A DNA stretch of 18,357 nt from a virus (Duplodnaviria > Heunggongvirae > Uroviricota > Caudoviricetes), in IMG/VR virus record IMGVR_UViG_2563366979_000001, positions 1-18,357 of that record, one strand, 5' to 3'. Both the position numbers and the translations under genes were made by a program. Position 1 is the stretch's first letter, and each line of letters opens with the position of its first letter. This document shows, one piece after another, positions 9,601 to 18,357 of this stretch. The notes under the pieces were generated by a model that saw only the letters and a program-made list of their open reading frames with translations, was not told where the DNA came from and did not search any database.

Positions 9601-9978
9601 ATGCGTGATATTCAGATGGTTCTTGAGCGTTGGGGAGCGTGGGCGGCTAATAATCATGAAGATGTGACCTGGTCGTCCATTGCCGCCGGTTTTAAGGGAT
9701 TAATTCCTTCAAAAGTAAAATCTCGCCCACAATGTTGTGACGATGACGCGATGATCATTTGCGGGTGCATGGCCCGTCTGAAAAAGAACAACAGCGATTT
9801 GCATGATTTATTGGTGGACTATTATGTCGGCGGCATGACTTTTATGGCGCTTGCACGTAAGCATGGGCGATCTGATTGTTGGGTTGGCAGGATGCTCCAG
9901 AAAGCTGAGGGCGTAGTGGAGGGTATGCTGATGGTGTTGGATCTCCGATTGGAGATGGATGCTGATTGTTCGAAATAA
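9601..9978 (+). CDS. quuD: Late-gene antiterminator Q (QuuD-like)
   Basis: ATG at 9601 with GGAG 7 nt upstream (ORF-track start at 9586 is a TTG); product [24 protein letters not shown]...[16 protein letters not shown] resembles DLP12 QuuD; position between ylcG and the lysis genes. Confidence 0.85.
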
Positions 9979-10076: not shown

Positions 10077-10105
10077 AGCCAGCCTCCCCAAAGGCTGGTT
10101 TTTTT
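10077..10105 (+). terminator. Intrinsic terminator downstream of Q (candidate tR')
   Basis: Stem CCAGCC (10079-10084) / GGCTGG (10093-10098), 8-nt loop, followed by seven T (10099-10105); oriented for plus-strand transcripts only. Confidence 0.6.
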
Positions 10106-10133
10106 CTAATAAGTATTATTTCGGGTAGGGATT

Positions 10134-10658
10134 TTATTGTTTAACCCATAATAATTCATTGACATTGAATCCCAACTTTTGAGCGGTTCGCGCATAGTCT
10201 GCTTTTACTTTATCTGGAATAGTTGGGGTCCTTGCCAGAATCCATAGGTATTCTCTGTTCGGACCACTGACAAGAGCATACTTATACTCATCATCCAGTT
10301 TGATTACATTATAGCCACCATAGAAGGGGCCAAAAAACGAAACCTTCAACGCTGCAGTTTTAGTATCTCCAGTAAAGTATGCTTTACCTTCGCTCTCGCT
10401 CCATTTATTTTTCGTTGGATCGTATCCACGGTTAAGTACACGAATCCCTCCGTCGTTCCGTTTTCCATAAGTAGCGCTGACCTGTTCCAGACCACGTTCG
10501 AACCGGTTCTCGAGGCGAGCTATTTCATACCATTTTCCGAGGTAGCGGTTGGCGTCAAAATTTGTAATCGGCTGCACACCTTTAGGTGGTGTCGGGGCCT
10601 TACATGCTATAAGAGTGAAAGAGAGTGCAATGCCAGTCAACACAGGCCATAACTTCAT
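10134..10658 (-). CDS. Bacterial lipocalin (Blc-like outer-membrane lipoprotein), divergent paralog
   Basis: 174-aa ORF; lipobox LIAC in signal peptide; lipocalin signature GKWYEIAR plus conserved SEGKAYFTG...LKVSFFGPFYGGYNVI...YLWILARTP blocks that match E. coli Blc as recalled. Confidence 0.85.
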   Translation of the reverse strand: MKLWPVLTGIALSFTLIACKAPTPPKGVQPITNFDANRYLGKWYEIARLENRFERGLEQVSATYGKRNDGGIRVLNRGYDPTKNKWSESEGKAYFTGDTKTAALKVSFFGPFYGGYNVIKLDDEYKYALVSGPNREYLWILARTPTIPDKVKADYARTAQKLGFNVNELLWVKQ

Positions 10659-10690
10659 AATAAATCCTGTACTTTTGATAGTTGAGAGTA

Positions 10691-10740
10691 AGTATGAAAG
10701 ATAGATGATTACGACCGATCACTTAAAGAACTTTCATACT
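10691..10740. promoter_or_regulatory. Perfect 10-bp inverted repeat AGTATGAAAG / CTTTCATACT separated by 30 bp, in the divergent promoter region between the lipocalin and YbgA-like genes
   Basis: Read directly: 10691-10700 and 10731-10740 are exact reverse complements. Confidence 0.4.
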
Positions 10741-10850
10741 ATATTAGGAATAGTCCATAACAGAAAAATTGTCAGTGATGACGCCAGAAAGGCAATTTAT
10801 TCCGTGCACTACACAGTTTATGTGTTAATGAATTAGTCAAGGGGGAGAAT

Positions 10851-11810
10851 ATGATAAAAAAACCTGTGATTGGAATCAGCGGTTGTTTGGCCGGTTCTGC
10901 TGTTCGTTTTGATGGTGGTCACAAAAGAGCTGACTTTTTAATGGACAAATTAGTGGAATGGGTAACATTCAGACCAGTATGTCCGGAAATGGCTATAGGG
11001 CTGCCAGTTCCGCGTCCTGCTCTACGTCTTGTGCGCTCGACGCAAGGAAATATACGGATGTGTTTCAGCTACGACCAGAATGAGGATGTGACAGAGAGAA
11101 TGACAGAGTTTAGTCGTTCTTATATGGACAAATTAAAGGATGTATCGGGGTTTGTGGTTTGTGCTAAATCTCCCAGCTGTGGCATGGAGCGCGTGCGTGT
11201 CTATGATGAAAATGGTAATCGAGGTCGTAAAGATGGAGTGGGACTATTTACGAGCACTTTGATGGAAAAGTTTTCCTGGCTACCGGTTGAAGAGGATGGG
11301 CGATTACATGATCCAGTGCTTCGTGAGAATTTTGTTGAAAGAGTTTTTGCTTTGCATGAGCTCAATCACCTTTACAAGGAGAAATTATCAAGAAGAGAGT
11401 TATTAGCTTTTCATAGTCGTTATAAGCTTCAGTTGTTGGCGCATAGTCAGGCAGGCTATAAAGATATGGGACCATTTGTGGCTGCAATACACGAGTGGGC
11501 GGACCTTGAATCATACTTTGAGGTGTATCGTGATAAGCTGATGGCGATTCTCAGAAAACCTGCATCACGTAAAAATCACACGAATGTGCTGATGCATATA
11601 CAGGGGTATTTTAGTAACTACTTAAGTACACGCCAGCGTAAAGAGTTGAGAGAGGTTATACTTAACTATCGTTCTGGCACATTGCCTCTTCTTGCGCCGT
11701 TGACTCTGCTGAAGCATTATCTGGGTGAGTATCCTAATGATTACTTGCTTACACAGAATTACTTCGATCCCTATCCGGACGAACTGGCTCTAAGACTGAT
11801 GGTAAATTAA
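10851..11810 (+). CDS. DUF523-DUF1722 protein, YbgA/RudS-family putative [4Fe-4S] thiouridine desulfidase
   Basis: 319-aa ORF with strong SD GGGGGAG; N-terminal block GISGCLAGSAVRFDGGHK...RPVCPEMAIGLPVPRPALRL...VVCAKSPSCGMERVRV with Cys12/Cys44/Cys104 spaced like the cluster ligands of TudS-type desulfidases; C-terminal half resembles the DUF1722 part of E. coli YbgA. Confidence 0.8.
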   Translation: MIKKPVIGISGCLAGSAVRFDGGHKRADFLMDKLVEWVTFRPVCPEMAIGLPVPRPALRLVRSTQGNIRMCFSYDQNEDVTERMTEFSRSYMDKLKDVSGFVVCAKSPSCGMERVRVYDENGNRGRKDGVGLFTSTLMEKFSWLPVEEDGRLHDPVLRENFVERVFALHELNHLYKEKLSRRELLAFHSRYKLQLLAHSQAGYKDMGPFVAAIHEWADLESYFEVYRDKLMAILRKPASRKNHTNVLMHIQGYFSNYLSTRQRKELREVILNYRSGTLPLLAPLTLLKHYLGEYPNDYLLTQNYFDPYPDELALRLMVN

Positions 11811-12161
11811 TTGTATGCGATATCATCCAAAAGGATGAGTTCCTGCATGCAGGATATTTACAATCGTAAAAACTACACTATGATACCCAGAGTGTCAGTT
11901 TGTATAAAAACTCTGTTTACGCTGAAGAAACCATTGAGATGCAACTTAAAGTTGGTAAACATGTCAGTCAAAATATATAATATTATGATTCCACGCAGCT
12001 ATATATAATATAACAGATTGGTTTAATAATTTGTCTTTGTGAGTTAAATACATAATTTTATACTTGTGATGCAATGAGATTTTCCTTATTGTTGAACTGG
12101 CGAATATTGATTTTCCACCTATACTTACCTGGTGTAACCCCAATGATATCAGGTGGATAAT

Positions 12162-12893
12162 ATGCCATACATATGTTCTATCATTTTGGTGTTGAACTCG
12201 TTTGATGTCCGAATTGGTAAAGAAGATATTTTGTTTAAAAAAGGAAGTGCTGTTCTCATTGATTACAATTTAAAAGATTTTTTTTCACCAAATATAGATC
12301 ATGTAATGATCGTAGATGTTGAAGAGAAAACAGTTAATGATTTCTTTAAAAGCAACACACTCTCACCTTTTTCTGTAAGAAGGTTTTATCCGGCATACTT
12401 GATGGTGGAATGTGAAGATTTTTCATTGTTAAAGAACTTGATTGCATGCTTGAATTGTGATGGCAGAACTGTGGATGTTGTTAGAAATCAAATATCACTT
12501 GCATGTCTTGCTATCTTATCTTCAGAGAAAATAGTGCAAAGTTTTTTATTTGGATGTCTTAATAGTTTAGGAAGTAAAGTTAAGGCTATTATTCACACGG
12601 ATATATCTGCAGCATGGAGACTTTGTGATATATCTTCAAGGCTGTATCTGAGTGAAAGTCTGTTAAAAAGAAAATTAAAGCACGAAGGCTTATCATTTAG
12701 TAAATTAATTCTTGAAGAGCGAATGGTGATGGCGGAAAGGTTATTAAGCTACAATTTATATTCTGTTGGAAAAGTTGCTGAGATATGCGGTTATGAAAAC
12801 ACGTCATATTTTGTAAGTGTTTTCAGAAGATATTTTGGTGTTCCTCCCCATCAATATTCATCAAGATTTTTTTTAGAAAAAGAAATGATGTAA
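12162..12893 (+). CDS. AraC/XylS-family transcriptional regulator, AppY-like paralog
   Basis: C-terminal AraC-type HTH (LKRKLKHEGLSFSKLILEERMVMAERLL...VAEICGYENTSYFVSVFRRYFGVPP); N-terminus alignable with AppY (YICS.., FKK); ATG 12162 preceded by AGGTGG (ORF-track start 12153 is a GTG inside the SD). Confidence 0.8.
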   Translation: MPYICSIILVLNSFDVRIGKEDILFKKGSAVLIDYNLKDFFSPNIDHVMIVDVEEKTVNDFFKSNTLSPFSVRRFYPAYLMVECEDFSLLKNLIACLNCDGRTVDVVRNQISLACLAILSSEKIVQSFLFGCLNSLGSKVKAIIHTDISAAWRLCDISSRLYLSESLLKRKLKHEGLSFSKLILEERMVMAERLLSYNLYSVGKVAEICGYENTSYFVSVFRRYFGVPPHQYSSRFFLEKEMM

Positions 12894-12954
12894 CGTGATG
12901 CGTTTTAATGATTTTGTGATTTTCGTATTTGATAATTGTATGATGCTTTCAGCT

Positions 12955-12986
12955 ACGCCAGAATAATCGCTGGCGTTTTTCTTTTT
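12955..12986 (+). terminator. Intrinsic terminator between the AraC gene and the holin
   Basis: Stem ACGCCAG (12955-12961) / CTGGCGT (12970-12976), 8-nt loop, followed by TTTTTCTTTTT (to 12986). Confidence 0.65.
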
Positions 12987-13082
12987 GAATAGATGTTCAA
13001 GCCTTACGCTAATGTAACTTCTATACCTTTCCCTCTTCGTTCCGAACCGTGTACACCATCCGTTATTTGCGGAGGTGAGACT

Positions 13083-13298
13083 ATGAAATCCATGGACAAG
13101 TTAACAACGGGCATTGCCTACGGCACCTCCGCAGGCAGTGCTGGCTACTGGTTTTTACAGTGGCTTGATCAGGTCAGTCCATCACAGTGGGCTGCTATTG
13201 GTGTGCTGGGAAGTCTGGTTCTGGGCTTCCTGACTTATCTGACAAATCTGTACTTCAAAATCAGAGAAGACAAGCGTAAGGCTGCGAGAGGTGAATAA
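13083..13298 (+). CDS. essD: Class II pinholin, phage 21 S-type (S21 71/68) with dual-start motif
   Basis: 71-aa product [71 protein letters not shown] is near-identical to phage 21 S / K-12 EssD as recalled; Met1-Lys-Ser-Met4 dual start; SD GGAGGTGA; the ORF-track upstream start at 12993 is rejected. Confidence 0.9.
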
Positions 13299-13504
13299 TG
13301 TCGCCATCATTACGCAAGGCTGTTGCAGCTGCTATTGGTGGTGGGGCTGTTGCCATAGCGTCTGTGCTTATCACTGGTCCGAGTGGTGACGATGGTCTGG
13401 AAGGTGTCAGCTACATACCATATAAAGATATCGTTGGCGTATGGACTGTATGTTACGGGCACACCGGAAAAGACATTATGCTCGGTAAAACGTATGCTGG
13501 TTGA
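13298..13504 (+). pseudogene. rrrD: SAR endolysin (R21/RrrD-type lysozyme) truncated after about codon 66 by a deletion
   Basis: 68-aa [69 protein letters not shown] then AG-stop; matches the SAR domain and E35/D44/T50 region of RrrD/R21 but lacks the remaining roughly 100 residues; start overlaps the essD stop (TAATG). Confidence 0.8.
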
Positions 13505-15665
13505 AGGTTTTCCGCCTTCACATGCCGGGACCATTACCGTCTATGAAGGCTCCAGACCAGGTACGCTGAATGATTTTCTCGGTGCCATGACGGAAGATGA
13601 TGTCATGCCGGAGGCATTGCGTCGTTTTGAGGAAATGGTGGAAGAAGCGGCACGCAACGCTGAAGCCGCCTCTCAGAGCGCAGCGGCGGCAAAGAAATCC
13701 GAAACTGCAGCGGCATCATCGAAGAATGCGGCGAAAACCTCAGAAACGAATGCAGCTAACAGCGCACAGGCGGCAGCGGCCTCGCAGACTGCATCGGCAA
13801 ATTCCGCGACAGCAGCTAAAAAATCAGAAACCAACGCGAAAAATAGCGAGACAGCAGCAAAGACGAGCGAAACCAACGCAAAGTCCAGCCAGACGGCAGC
13901 GAAAACCAGCGAAACGAATGCCAAAGCCAGTGAAACTGCGGCGAAAAACAGCCAGGTTGCAGCAGCTGAAAGCGAGAGCGCAGCAGCCGGTTCTGCGACT
14001 TCAGCAGCTGGATCAGCAACTGCTGCGGCTAACAGCCAGAAAGCTGCGAAGACGAGTGAAACTAACGCAAAGTCCAGCCAGACGGCAGCGAAGACCAGCG
14101 AAACGAATGCCAAAGCCAGCGAAACTGCGGCAAAAAACAGTCAGGATGCAGCGGCCCAAAGCGAGAGTGCCGCAGCTGGTTCTGCAAGTGCGGCAGCTAA
14201 TAGCCAAAAAGCTGCAAAAACCAGTGAAACTAACGCAAAGACGAGTGAAACAAAAGCAGCAGCCAGCGAGACAGAAGCAACGTCAGCCGCAACAAGAGCA
14301 GAGAATGCAGCCCGGATTGCAGAAGATGTCGCTGATCCTGCTTCAGTCCCTCCGCTTCCTGATATCTGGCTACCCTTGAATGATTCTCTGGAAGCGATAA
14401 CAGGGTATGCGCCGGGGTATAAAACAATAACCATCGGTAGTGATGAAATCACTGTGCCAGTTAATGGAATATGTCAGTTTAGCCGGGCTTCATCAGCAAC
14501 GTATATTGATAAGTCCGGGCATATTACCGTGGCAGGTAATAACGTTCCTCGTTTTGAAAAATATGGTTTACTGATAGAGAATCAGCGAACAAACATGTTC
14601 GTAAATAGTTTTAATCCTGATGCCTGGAATAAAAGCGGTGGTATATCTGTAACATCATCAACAGATGAATTTGAGTTTAAATATGGACGTTTCACAGTAG
14701 GAAGCGACATAGCAGGAACGACAACAGGGAGAAATATATGCACAGTTGCTGGTAATAAAGGCATAGATGTGACTGGCGATGATCAGTACAGTAAAGGTCC
14801 GTATGTTACCGCGTCGTTCAGGGTAAGAAGTGATCTCAATGTTCGCGCACGTATCCGTTTTGAACGGTATAACTCGGAAGGATACACTTTTCTTTGTGAC
14901 GCCTATTTGTCATTACAGACCCGTGAACTACAAATTACTGGTGGCAATGCCCAGCTATTAACAGCAAACTTTGAAATCGACCCTGGAAGTGGATGGATAT
15001 ATTTTCAGGCAACACTGAAATGTCTGCCAGAATGGGGAATGGTTGGTACGCAGCTGCAAATTGCAGCCGACAGAGCTGTGGGGTCTTTTGCAACAGGTGA
15101 CTGGATAGAAGTAACCACCCCGCAATTCGAGTATGGTGCCTGTGCAACTTCCTTCATCATAACTACAACAGAGCCAGCGACTCGTGCATCAGATTTATGT
15201 AAATTTCCGCTGATGAAAAATATGTATACCATGCCTTTTACGTTCATGGTGGAAGTCCATAAAAACTGGTTTATTTCTCATAATGCTGCACCGCGCGTAA
15301 TTGATACAGAAAACCATCAGTCAGGTGCTCCATTTATCATGGGATTTGGCTCTTCTGGAACTATCAGTCAGGACGGTTATCCCTATTGTGATATAGGCGG
15401 GGCTAACCGGCGTGTATATGAGTCATGCGGAGTAAGAGATCTCGTTATGGGATTCAGGGTTAAGGCTGACGGCATGACATGCTCATTTGCAAATAAGCAT
15501 ATAAGCACAGAAACAAAAACAGTATGGAAATATATTCGTGAAGCTGCTGTGATTCGTATCGGGGGGCAAACGACGACAGGATTGCGACACCTTAATGGTC
15601 ATATAAAAAATCTCCGTTTCTGGAACAGAGCATTGTCAGATACGCAGCTTAAGGAATACGTATAA
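13494..15665 (+). CDS. Side tail fibre protein (lambda Stf-like), N-terminally truncated, with a LamG/concanavalin-like C-terminal domain; possibly a non-expressed remnant
   Basis: From about 13497 the frame reads [34 protein letters not shown]..., matching lambda Stf from about residue 38; Ala/Ser/Thr-rich SETNAK repeats; C-terminus ends [17 protein letters not shown] (LamG-like motif); upstream part of the 760-aa ORF is the rrrD region in another frame; first in-frame ATG at 13494 has no SD. Confidence 0.7.
13867..14223 (+). repeat. Two imperfect tandem repeats of about 170-190 bp inside stf, encoding the Ala-rich shaft
   Basis: Unit ...[42 protein letters not shown]...AANSQKAAK occurs twice (nt about 13867-14055 and 14056-14223), one copy with a 21-nt indel. 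Confidence 0.6.
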
Positions 15666-17607: not shown

Positions 17608-18357
17608 ATGGATTATGTTTGCTCCGTAGTTTTCATCTGTCAATCATTTGATTTAATTATAAACAGGAGAGTTATCTCGTTCAAAAAAAATTCATTGTTT
17701 ATTGTAAACGACAAAATTAGAAGGGAGTTACCAGTATGCCCCTCTAAACTAAGAATTGTTGATATAGATAAGAAAACATGTTTATCCTTTTTTATCGACG
17801 TGAATAATGATCTGCCTGGCAAATTTACTCTTGATAAGAATGGCTATATTGCTGAAGAGGAACCTCCATTATCGCTTGTTTTTTCTCTGTTTGAAGGGAT
17901 TAAAATAGCAGACTCACACTCCCTTTGGTTAAAAGAAAGACTATGTATATCCTTACTTGCCATGTTCAAAAAACGCGAAAGTGTAAATTCATTTATACTA
18001 ACAAATATAAATACATTTACCTGTAAAATTACTGGAATAATCAGTTTTAATATTGAGCGGCAATGGCATTTAAAAGATATTGCGGAATTGATTTATACGA
18101 GTGAAAGTTTAATAAAAAAAAGATTAAGAGATGAAGGAACGTCATTTACTGAAATATTGAGAGATACTAGGATGAGGTATGCAAAAAAACTCATAACTTC
18201 AAACTCTTATTCTATTAATGTCGTAGCCCAGAAATGTGGCTATAACAGTACTTCATATTTCATATGTGCATTTAAAGATTATTATGGTGTCACGCCATCT
18301 CATTATTTTGAGAAAATAATCGGCGTCACAGATGGAATAAACAAAACAATTGACTGA
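17608..18357 (+). CDS. appY: AraC-family regulator AppY; the TGA stop is the last three bases of the window
   Basis: 249-aa [36 protein letters not shown]... near-identical to K-12 AppY as recalled; preceded by about 540 bp of very AT-rich DNA. Confidence 0.9.

Follow-up and report, generated by a model that had tools for sequence, protein, structure and literature searches.

The solitary pinholin gene in positions 13083-13504 of the window (the whole stretch of DNA analysed, 18,357 nucleotides long) is very probably the outcome of ordinary, recent and strain-private prophage decay, in which one illegitimate deletion of about 21 kb stranded essD without any sign of selection for its persistence. 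This region would represent the promoter-proximal end of a lambdoid late lysis cassette, in which an intact essD is followed by a stub of the endolysin gene rrrD and then, across a deletion junction, by a side-tail-fibre gene.

The window covers a lambdoid prophage at the argU/DLP12 site of Escherichia coli KTE54, with intD marking its left end and appY its right, a location that fits the gene names essD and rrrD. Its ends and the first of its private junctions are placed as follows:

1..1164, minus strand: intD integrase gene, left end of the prophage (Pfam Phage_integrase, E=5.5e-47)
2342..2343: first private deletion junction, where a fragment of a DGQHR-domain gene is joined to the 3' end of the replication gene P (blastn against intact prophages)
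17608..18357, plus strand: appY, host-side marker at the right end of the DLP12 locus (97.8% match to the Br_167 appY region)

The intD region is 98.7% identical to the intD region beside tRNA-Arg in E. coli Br_167. The intact prophage at the same site in that strain runs, in its left part, through early genes, O, P, an inverse autotransporter, a hydrolase and ybcN-ninE-ybcO-rusA-ylcG-Q, and in its right part through lipocalin, YbgA, AraC-type, essD, rrrD, Rz, Rha, nohD, terminase, head and tail genes, J and stf to appY. The 2342/2343 junction has cost the prophage exo/bet/gam, repressor/cro, YdaT, O and most of P, and this loss of recombination, immunity and replication genes implies that the prophage is not inducible and has no replication of its own. 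No genome among 5,426 complete E. coli genomes spans the junction at a query cover of at least 80%. The immunity and replication region would have been taken out by a deletion separate from that affecting the lysis genes. Between the P remnant and the nin genes (2672-7663) the window encodes a 1,303-aa inverse autotransporter of intimin/invasin-like type, in which Big_1/Invasin_D3 domains are repeated, and a divergent alpha/beta hydrolase; the same interval holds a 353-bp tandem duplication (3983-4335 / 4340-4692). Rfam and tRNA scans of the whole window returned nothing.

The pinholin gene and its alternative starts are located thus:

13083..13298, plus strand: essD, S21-type pinholin gene (open reading frame, Pfam, alignment to phage 21, hydropathy)
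13083, plus strand: Met1 start, giving the 71-aa antiholin form
13092, plus strand: Met4 start, giving the 68-aa holin form

The essD reading frame is complete at 71 aa, and its product matches Pfam PF04971 'Bacteriophage P21 holin S' (Phage_holin_2_1) over profile positions 1-63 of 64 with E=3.5e-35, scoring 120.2 bits where the curated cut-off is 26. Profile and alignment together identify EssD as an S21-type pinholin of the class II holin family. The N-terminus, MKSMDK, is that of S21 and contains the dual start M1-K2-S3-M4; hence, the preliminary description was right both in calling the gene full length, the match extending over nearly the whole profile, and in reading a Met1-Lys-Ser-Met4 dual start, which is identical to that of S21. 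The Met1-Lys2-(Ser3)-Met4 motif has been described as yielding an antiholin with an extra N-terminal positive charge (PMC9636201), and the phage 21 genome (OL657228) is annotated with both products, the S21-71 antiholin and the S21-68 holin. Further, the Shine-Dalgarno sequence GGAGG at 13071-13075 agrees with that of phage 21 in sequence and spacing. RNA folding places a small hairpin over the Shine-Dalgarno sequence of the dual-start leader, a feature common to phage 21, and the folding energies of the leader are no better than those of shuffled sequences (z = -0.9 to -1.4). At position 13080, between the Shine-Dalgarno sequence and the ATG, the window has an A where the Br_167 prophage and phage IdasGreatGrand have a G, which slightly alters the predicted minimum-energy fold of the leader.

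Aligned with S21 of phage 21 (OL657228), EssD is identical at 68 of 71 residues, the differences being I7L, S8T and R64K, all of them conservative and all outside TMD2. The preliminary description had named inactivating substitutions relative to S21 as the finding that would speak against a functional pinholin, and none was found across the 71-aa alignment. TMD2 (residues 36-57) is strongly hydrophobic, with a hydropathy peak at 36-53 (mean 2.1), and on its G40xxxS44xxxG48 face G40, S44 and G48 are invariant in the alignment. These residues form a functionally important motif of the S21 pinholin. TMD1 is weakly hydrophobic, residues 9-28 being 55% G/A/S/T, and the C-terminal tail is charged. 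The exact 71-aa sequence has been recorded from 660 contigs (exact-protein look-up), and it is 100% identical to the holins of the intact prophage of E. coli Br_167 and of the isolated phage IdasGreatGrand (PP925829). The latter identity lends indirect support to pinhole formation and depolarisation by EssD, a putative activity.

Immediately downstream lies the endolysin remnant:

13298..13504, plus strand: rrrD', stub of the SAR endolysin gene (open reading frame, alignment to R21/RrrD, Pfam)

Its start overlaps the essD stop (TAATG) in the same manner as in phage 21. The reading frame has 68 codons for amino acids, of which codons 1-66 are authentic, followed by Ala-Gly-stop contributed by tail-fibre DNA. 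Residues 1-66 align with residues 1-66 of R21 (PDB 3HDE) and of K-12 RrrD (4ZPU) with E about 1e-37, and the stub is 91% identical to R21 over that stretch. The SAR domain is kept, residues 1-30 aligning to R21/RrrD with three substitutions, residues 8-26 being 63% G/A/S/T, and the hydropathy peak falling at 11-25. E35, D44 and T50, given as the catalytic residues of the P21 and DLP12 endolysins (PMC8228626, Table 3), are likewise retained in the alignment. The Pfam lysozyme model PF00959 is covered only at positions 3-35 of 125, and the two-lobed lysozyme fold of about 165 residues is incomplete, residues 67-165 (99 of 165) being absent. The proposal that the C-terminal lobe had been lost is thus confirmed, and the proposal that only the SAR anchor and the E35/D44/T50 region are kept stands with the correction that the protein ends in a foreign Ala-Gly and stop. 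On this alignment evidence RrrD' is a gene remnant that cannot fold as a lysozyme and is non-functional as a GH24 T4-lysozyme-like SAR endolysin.

The boundary between rrrD and the tail-fibre gene comprises two features:

13495..13496: second private deletion junction, at which rrrD codon 66 meets stf codon about 63 (breakpoint sequences, blastn)
13494..15665, plus strand: stf', side-tail-fibre gene without its first ~62 codons (Pfam phage_tail_N, gene call, ELG08481.1)

The breakpoint sequences read ...AAAACGTAT/ACCGAAG in rrrD, ...GTCATCCT/GCTGGTTG in stf and ...AAAACGTAT/GCTGGTTG in the window, so that the two sides share a microhomology of 1 nt (T), which points to illegitimate recombination. 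To the left, window positions 10355-13495 are 99.94% identical to the intact Br_167 prophage up to the point inside rrrD (local blastn), and from Q through rrrD codon 66 the DNA identity to IdasGreatGrand and the Br_167 prophage is 99.3-99.9%. From 13495 on, the window is a side-tail-fibre gene, 83% identical to Br_167 and up to 97.7% identical to other genomes, and the first residues past the join fall at positions 64-131 of the 134 in the Pfam phage_tail_N profile. Relative to the Br_167 prophage, in which essD leads into a full-length rrrD and on to Rz, Rha, nohD, terminase, head and tail genes, about 20.9 kb is absent at this junction, comprising the rest of rrrD, the Rz/Rz1 spanins and all packaging, head and tail genes. 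A single illegitimate recombination with 1 nt of microhomology would have removed these roughly 21 kb, from rrrD codon 66 to stf codon about 63. In view of the identity of only 83-97.7% between the tail-fibre side and known genomes, the event could also have been a recombination between two different prophages as opposed to a simple internal deletion. The intactness of essD follows from the left breakpoint having fallen 197 bp downstream of its stop.

The join itself makes the ATG at 13494, the A and T coming from rrrD and the G from stf, in the stf frame. The resulting stf' reading frame of 723 aa starts exactly at the join, overlaps the stop of the rrrD' stub by 11 nt, and carries the KTE54 annotation 'phage tail fiber protein' (ELG08481.1). 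No convincing Shine-Dalgarno sequence can be seen ahead of this ATG, and its creation by the join is probably a coincidence. Within the tail-fibre gene, 13842-14240 has direct repeats of about 170-250 bp that have diverged to 87% identity and encode 12-residue protein repeats typical of lambdoid side tail fibres.

The distribution of this junction bears on both its reality and its age. Queries spanning 13495/13496 found no place with at least 80% cover in the 5,426 complete E. coli genomes (BLAST), and the 30-nt junction string had no exact match in 185,579 GTDB species-representative genomes or in metagenome contigs. An exact-protein look-up recovered the 68-aa RrrD' from two assemblies only, GCA_000352345.1, whose protein record ELG08480.1 names E. 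coli KTE54, and the Logan assembly of SRR640074. Each matches the window at 100% identity over 13.7-15 kb; the Logan assembly is separate from GCA_000352345.1, but its reads may be from the same strain. In each of the five complete genomes that match the essD region at 99.6% identity or more, the annotated rrrD is full-length. In the databases searched, the rrrD/stf junction is hence private to one strain or clone, KTE54. It is conceivable in principle that the join is a chimera of repeated prophage sequences in a draft assembly, as E. coli genomes tend to carry rrrD and stf in several copies (a median of 2-3 places per genome) and many 'partial' RrrD entries are contig ends or gaps. However, the same junction recurs in the Logan assembly of SRR640074, which matches the window at 100% identity across 13.7 kb; with just 1 nt in common at the join, its two sides offer no repeat to mislead an assembler; and the sequences on either flank are those expected next to the DLP12 site in the chromosome, making an artefact scarcely credible.

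Decay of the prophage by a genuine deletion also has consequences for how the intact essD should be read. The near-identity of the left flank to intact prophages marks the deletion as recent; and with a deletion both recent and strain-private, an intact essD is the neutral expectation and says nothing about selection. The sequences carrying the deletion are all identical and as such offer no evolutionary signal of essD retention. The preliminary description had suggested that essD was 'retained', possibly kept for a non-lytic role; a junction private to KTE54, with a flank 99.94% identical to an intact prophage, leaves that suggestion unsupported.

A domesticated pinholin is nevertheless the alternative with the most to recommend it. 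It holds that the host keeps essD for a non-lytic role, such as vesicle formation, release of envelope material or stress-induced depolarisation, in the way that has been proposed for the K-12 DLP12 lysis module, and we regard it as unlikely. One observation in its favour is an independent instance of an intact pinholin beside a dead endolysin, namely an rrrD pseudogene (positions 4001-4495 of contig L017, from a human gut metagenome) in which Gln85 is changed to a stop and which adjoins an intact 71-aa pinholin gene and an intact Rz gene. The 84-aa product of this allele has been recorded from 14 contigs, with the stop verified in L017; the contigs of two NCBI assemblies with the 84-aa product (L018, L019) break off at the Q85 point or shortly after it. 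Most 'partial' members of the RrrD cluster were rejected as true truncations, as they coincide with contig ends (L012-L016, L018, L019) or a gap of Ns (L011). Against domestication, rrrD is 2.3 times the length of essD and random hits are expected to disable it first; an intact pinholin beside a dead endolysin is thus expected from random decay, rrrD being the larger target. The occurrence of the junction in a single strain, with flanks about 99.9% identical to an intact prophage, also weighs against it.

Whether essD could be expressed at all hinges on the region upstream, which is organised as follows:

9601..9978, plus strand: late antiterminator gene Q, intact, 125 aa (Pfam PF06530, E=2.5e-51)
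10077..10110, plus strand: terminator-like hairpin with T-run, about 100 nt past Q (consensus scan, sequence read)
10134..12893: accessory ('moron') block between Q and the lysis genes (Pfam)
10134-10658, minus strand: lipocalin, Blc-like (Pfam)
10851-11810: YbgA-family protein with 2-thiouracil desulfurase domain and DUF1722 (Pfam)
12153/12162-12893: AraC-type regulator with its own terminator-like hairpin (Pfam)
12955..12986, plus strand: terminator-like hairpin (ACGCCAG/CTGGCGT) with T-run, between the AraC-type gene and essD (consensus scan)

This arrangement would be compatible with a lambdoid late operon, in that an intact Q lies upstream, a terminator-like hairpin follows about 100 nt past Q, and the lysis genes come after it, and the hairpin at 10077..10110 is a candidate tR' of the late operon. 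Without their T-runs the two hairpins span 10077-10100 and 12955-12976. The lipocalin/YbgA/AraC block lies upstream of the holin in IdasGreatGrand and the Br_167 prophage as well, both of which conserve the hairpin at 12955..12986, and it is present in about 1,000 complete E. coli genomes. A consensus scan of the plus strand from 12065 to 13600 found no sigma-70-like site. The window Q is 88% identical to K-12 QuuD, and the K-12 DLP12 region downstream of Q aligns poorly with the window, being too divergent for the position of the late promoter to be transferred. The two terminator-like hairpins and the lack of a promoter-like site nearby in these scans suggest that essD depends on Q, by way of read-through from a late promoter just past Q as in the intact phage. 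Further, the normal early promoter for Q would have been deleted, which implies low essD expression unless Q is supplied by read-through, stress regulation or another prophage; with no such promoter for Q, the cassette should be silent or only weakly active.

For a domesticated essD, the intact Q counts as favourable, as does the report that the K-12 DLP12 lysis module is transcribed and controlled by Q, RpoE and Hha (PMC7918800). By analogy with that cassette, some basal expression of essD with a physiological effect is possible. However, the lack of a sigma-70-like site next to essD and the terminator-like hairpin just upstream of it argue against such a role. The same native order of Q, terminator-like hairpin and essD could alternatively be viewed as a trap for other phages, in that the Q of a superinfecting or co-resident lambdoid phage would recognise the late promoter and turn on the resident essD, which we consider very improbable. 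The extra pinholin might then advance triggering, giving a shorter latent period and a lower burst, an outcome to which equally little weight is assigned, even though holin dose and the holin:antiholin ratio are documented to set lysis timing (PMC9636201). Against a phage with a canonical holin, the result might be a depolarised cell without productive lysis, and this too has a very low probability. The case for these effects is purely inferential, and it is countered by the fact that the sequence looks like that of any decaying late operon and comes from a single strain.

Comparison with well-studied systems helps to delimit what has been lost in the decayed KTE54 prophage. With phage 21 the window has in common an EssD matching S21 at 68 of 71 residues, the MKSM dual start, the Shine-Dalgarno spacing and the overlap of holin stop and endolysin start, and RrrD' shares with R21 (PDB 3HDE/3HDF) the SAR domain and E35/D44/T50. 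Unlike phage 21, the window has an endolysin that ends after residue 66, lacks Rz/Rz1 and the two tRNA genes found upstream of S21, and interposes the lipocalin/YbgA/AraC block and an extra terminator-like hairpin before essD. The K-12 DLP12 prophage, with its essD-rrrD(ybcS)-rzpD/rzoD cassette, occupies the same chromosomal site between intD and appY, possesses the same nin-region genes (ybcN, ninE, ybcO, rusA, ylcG and Q), encodes an EssD 90% and a Q 88% identical to those of the window, and similarly has neither immunity nor replication genes. However, all four lysis genes are intact in K-12 whereas the window keeps only essD, and between Q and essD K-12 has nmpC::IS5 in place of lipocalin/YbgA/AraC. 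IdasGreatGrand (PP925829) and the Br_167 prophage (NZ_CP182378) carry an identical EssD and the same accessory block, but in contrast to the window they have full rrrD, Rz, terminase, head and tail genes.

The nearest experimental parallel is the K-12 ULS153 deltaR deltaRz double mutant, which is reported to be viable and to produce 2.4-fold more outer-membrane vesicles (Pasqua et al. 2021, PMC7918800). It is an engineered equivalent of the KTE54 genotype, with essD present and endolysin and spanins absent, but it differs in being a laboratory construct with another essD allele and promoter context. Its vesicle phenotype, which favours domestication, constitutes the sole support for a non-lytic role, and would have to be carried over from another strain and another allele.

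If the stranded cassette were to be expressed, its action may be reconstructed from phage 21. Q-modified RNA polymerase, having started downstream of Q, would read through both terminator-like hairpins into essD, whose translation from Met1 and Met4 would produce the 71-aa antiholin and the 68-aa holin. The EssD holin would accumulate in the inner membrane, trigger, form small heptameric pinholes and collapse the proton motive force, in line with the heptameric channels of about 2 nm and the proton motive force collapse described for the S21 pinholin (review PMC9636201). At most, the 68-aa RrrD' stub would amount to a SAR peptide, either tethered to the membrane or released, that is devoid of muralytic activity because the lysozyme fold has lost 99 of its 165 residues. 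Non-lytic killing by a pinholin on its own and SAR refolding belong to the known biology of such systems. With neither endolysin nor spanin, essD would, if transcribed, probably depolarise the membrane and kill the cell but not lyse it. Depolarisation by a transcribed essD, which the preliminary description had suggested, is plausible from what is established for S21.

A still bolder proposition, that the orphan pinholin has remained under an intact Q and a late-operon leader and is a working host asset in KTE54, appears a shade less likely even than domestication in general. If it were true, loss of the endolysin would have turned a lysis cassette into a non-lytic membrane-permeabilising module, and the locus would act as a Q- or stress-triggered depolarisation switch leading to vesicle release, dormancy or interference with superinfecting lambdoid phages. 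Under the preferred reading of recent decay, the gene, the protein, the locus and the mechanism are all already well described and the orphan state bears no sign of selection, such that the significance of the finding is small and it opens no new question. What the KTE54 locus provides is a natural counterpart of the engineered K-12 mutant that keeps essD without endolysin and spanins, and a clean, datable example of lambdoid prophage decay, which shows how the gene for a lethal membrane protein can be stranded without its lytic partners.
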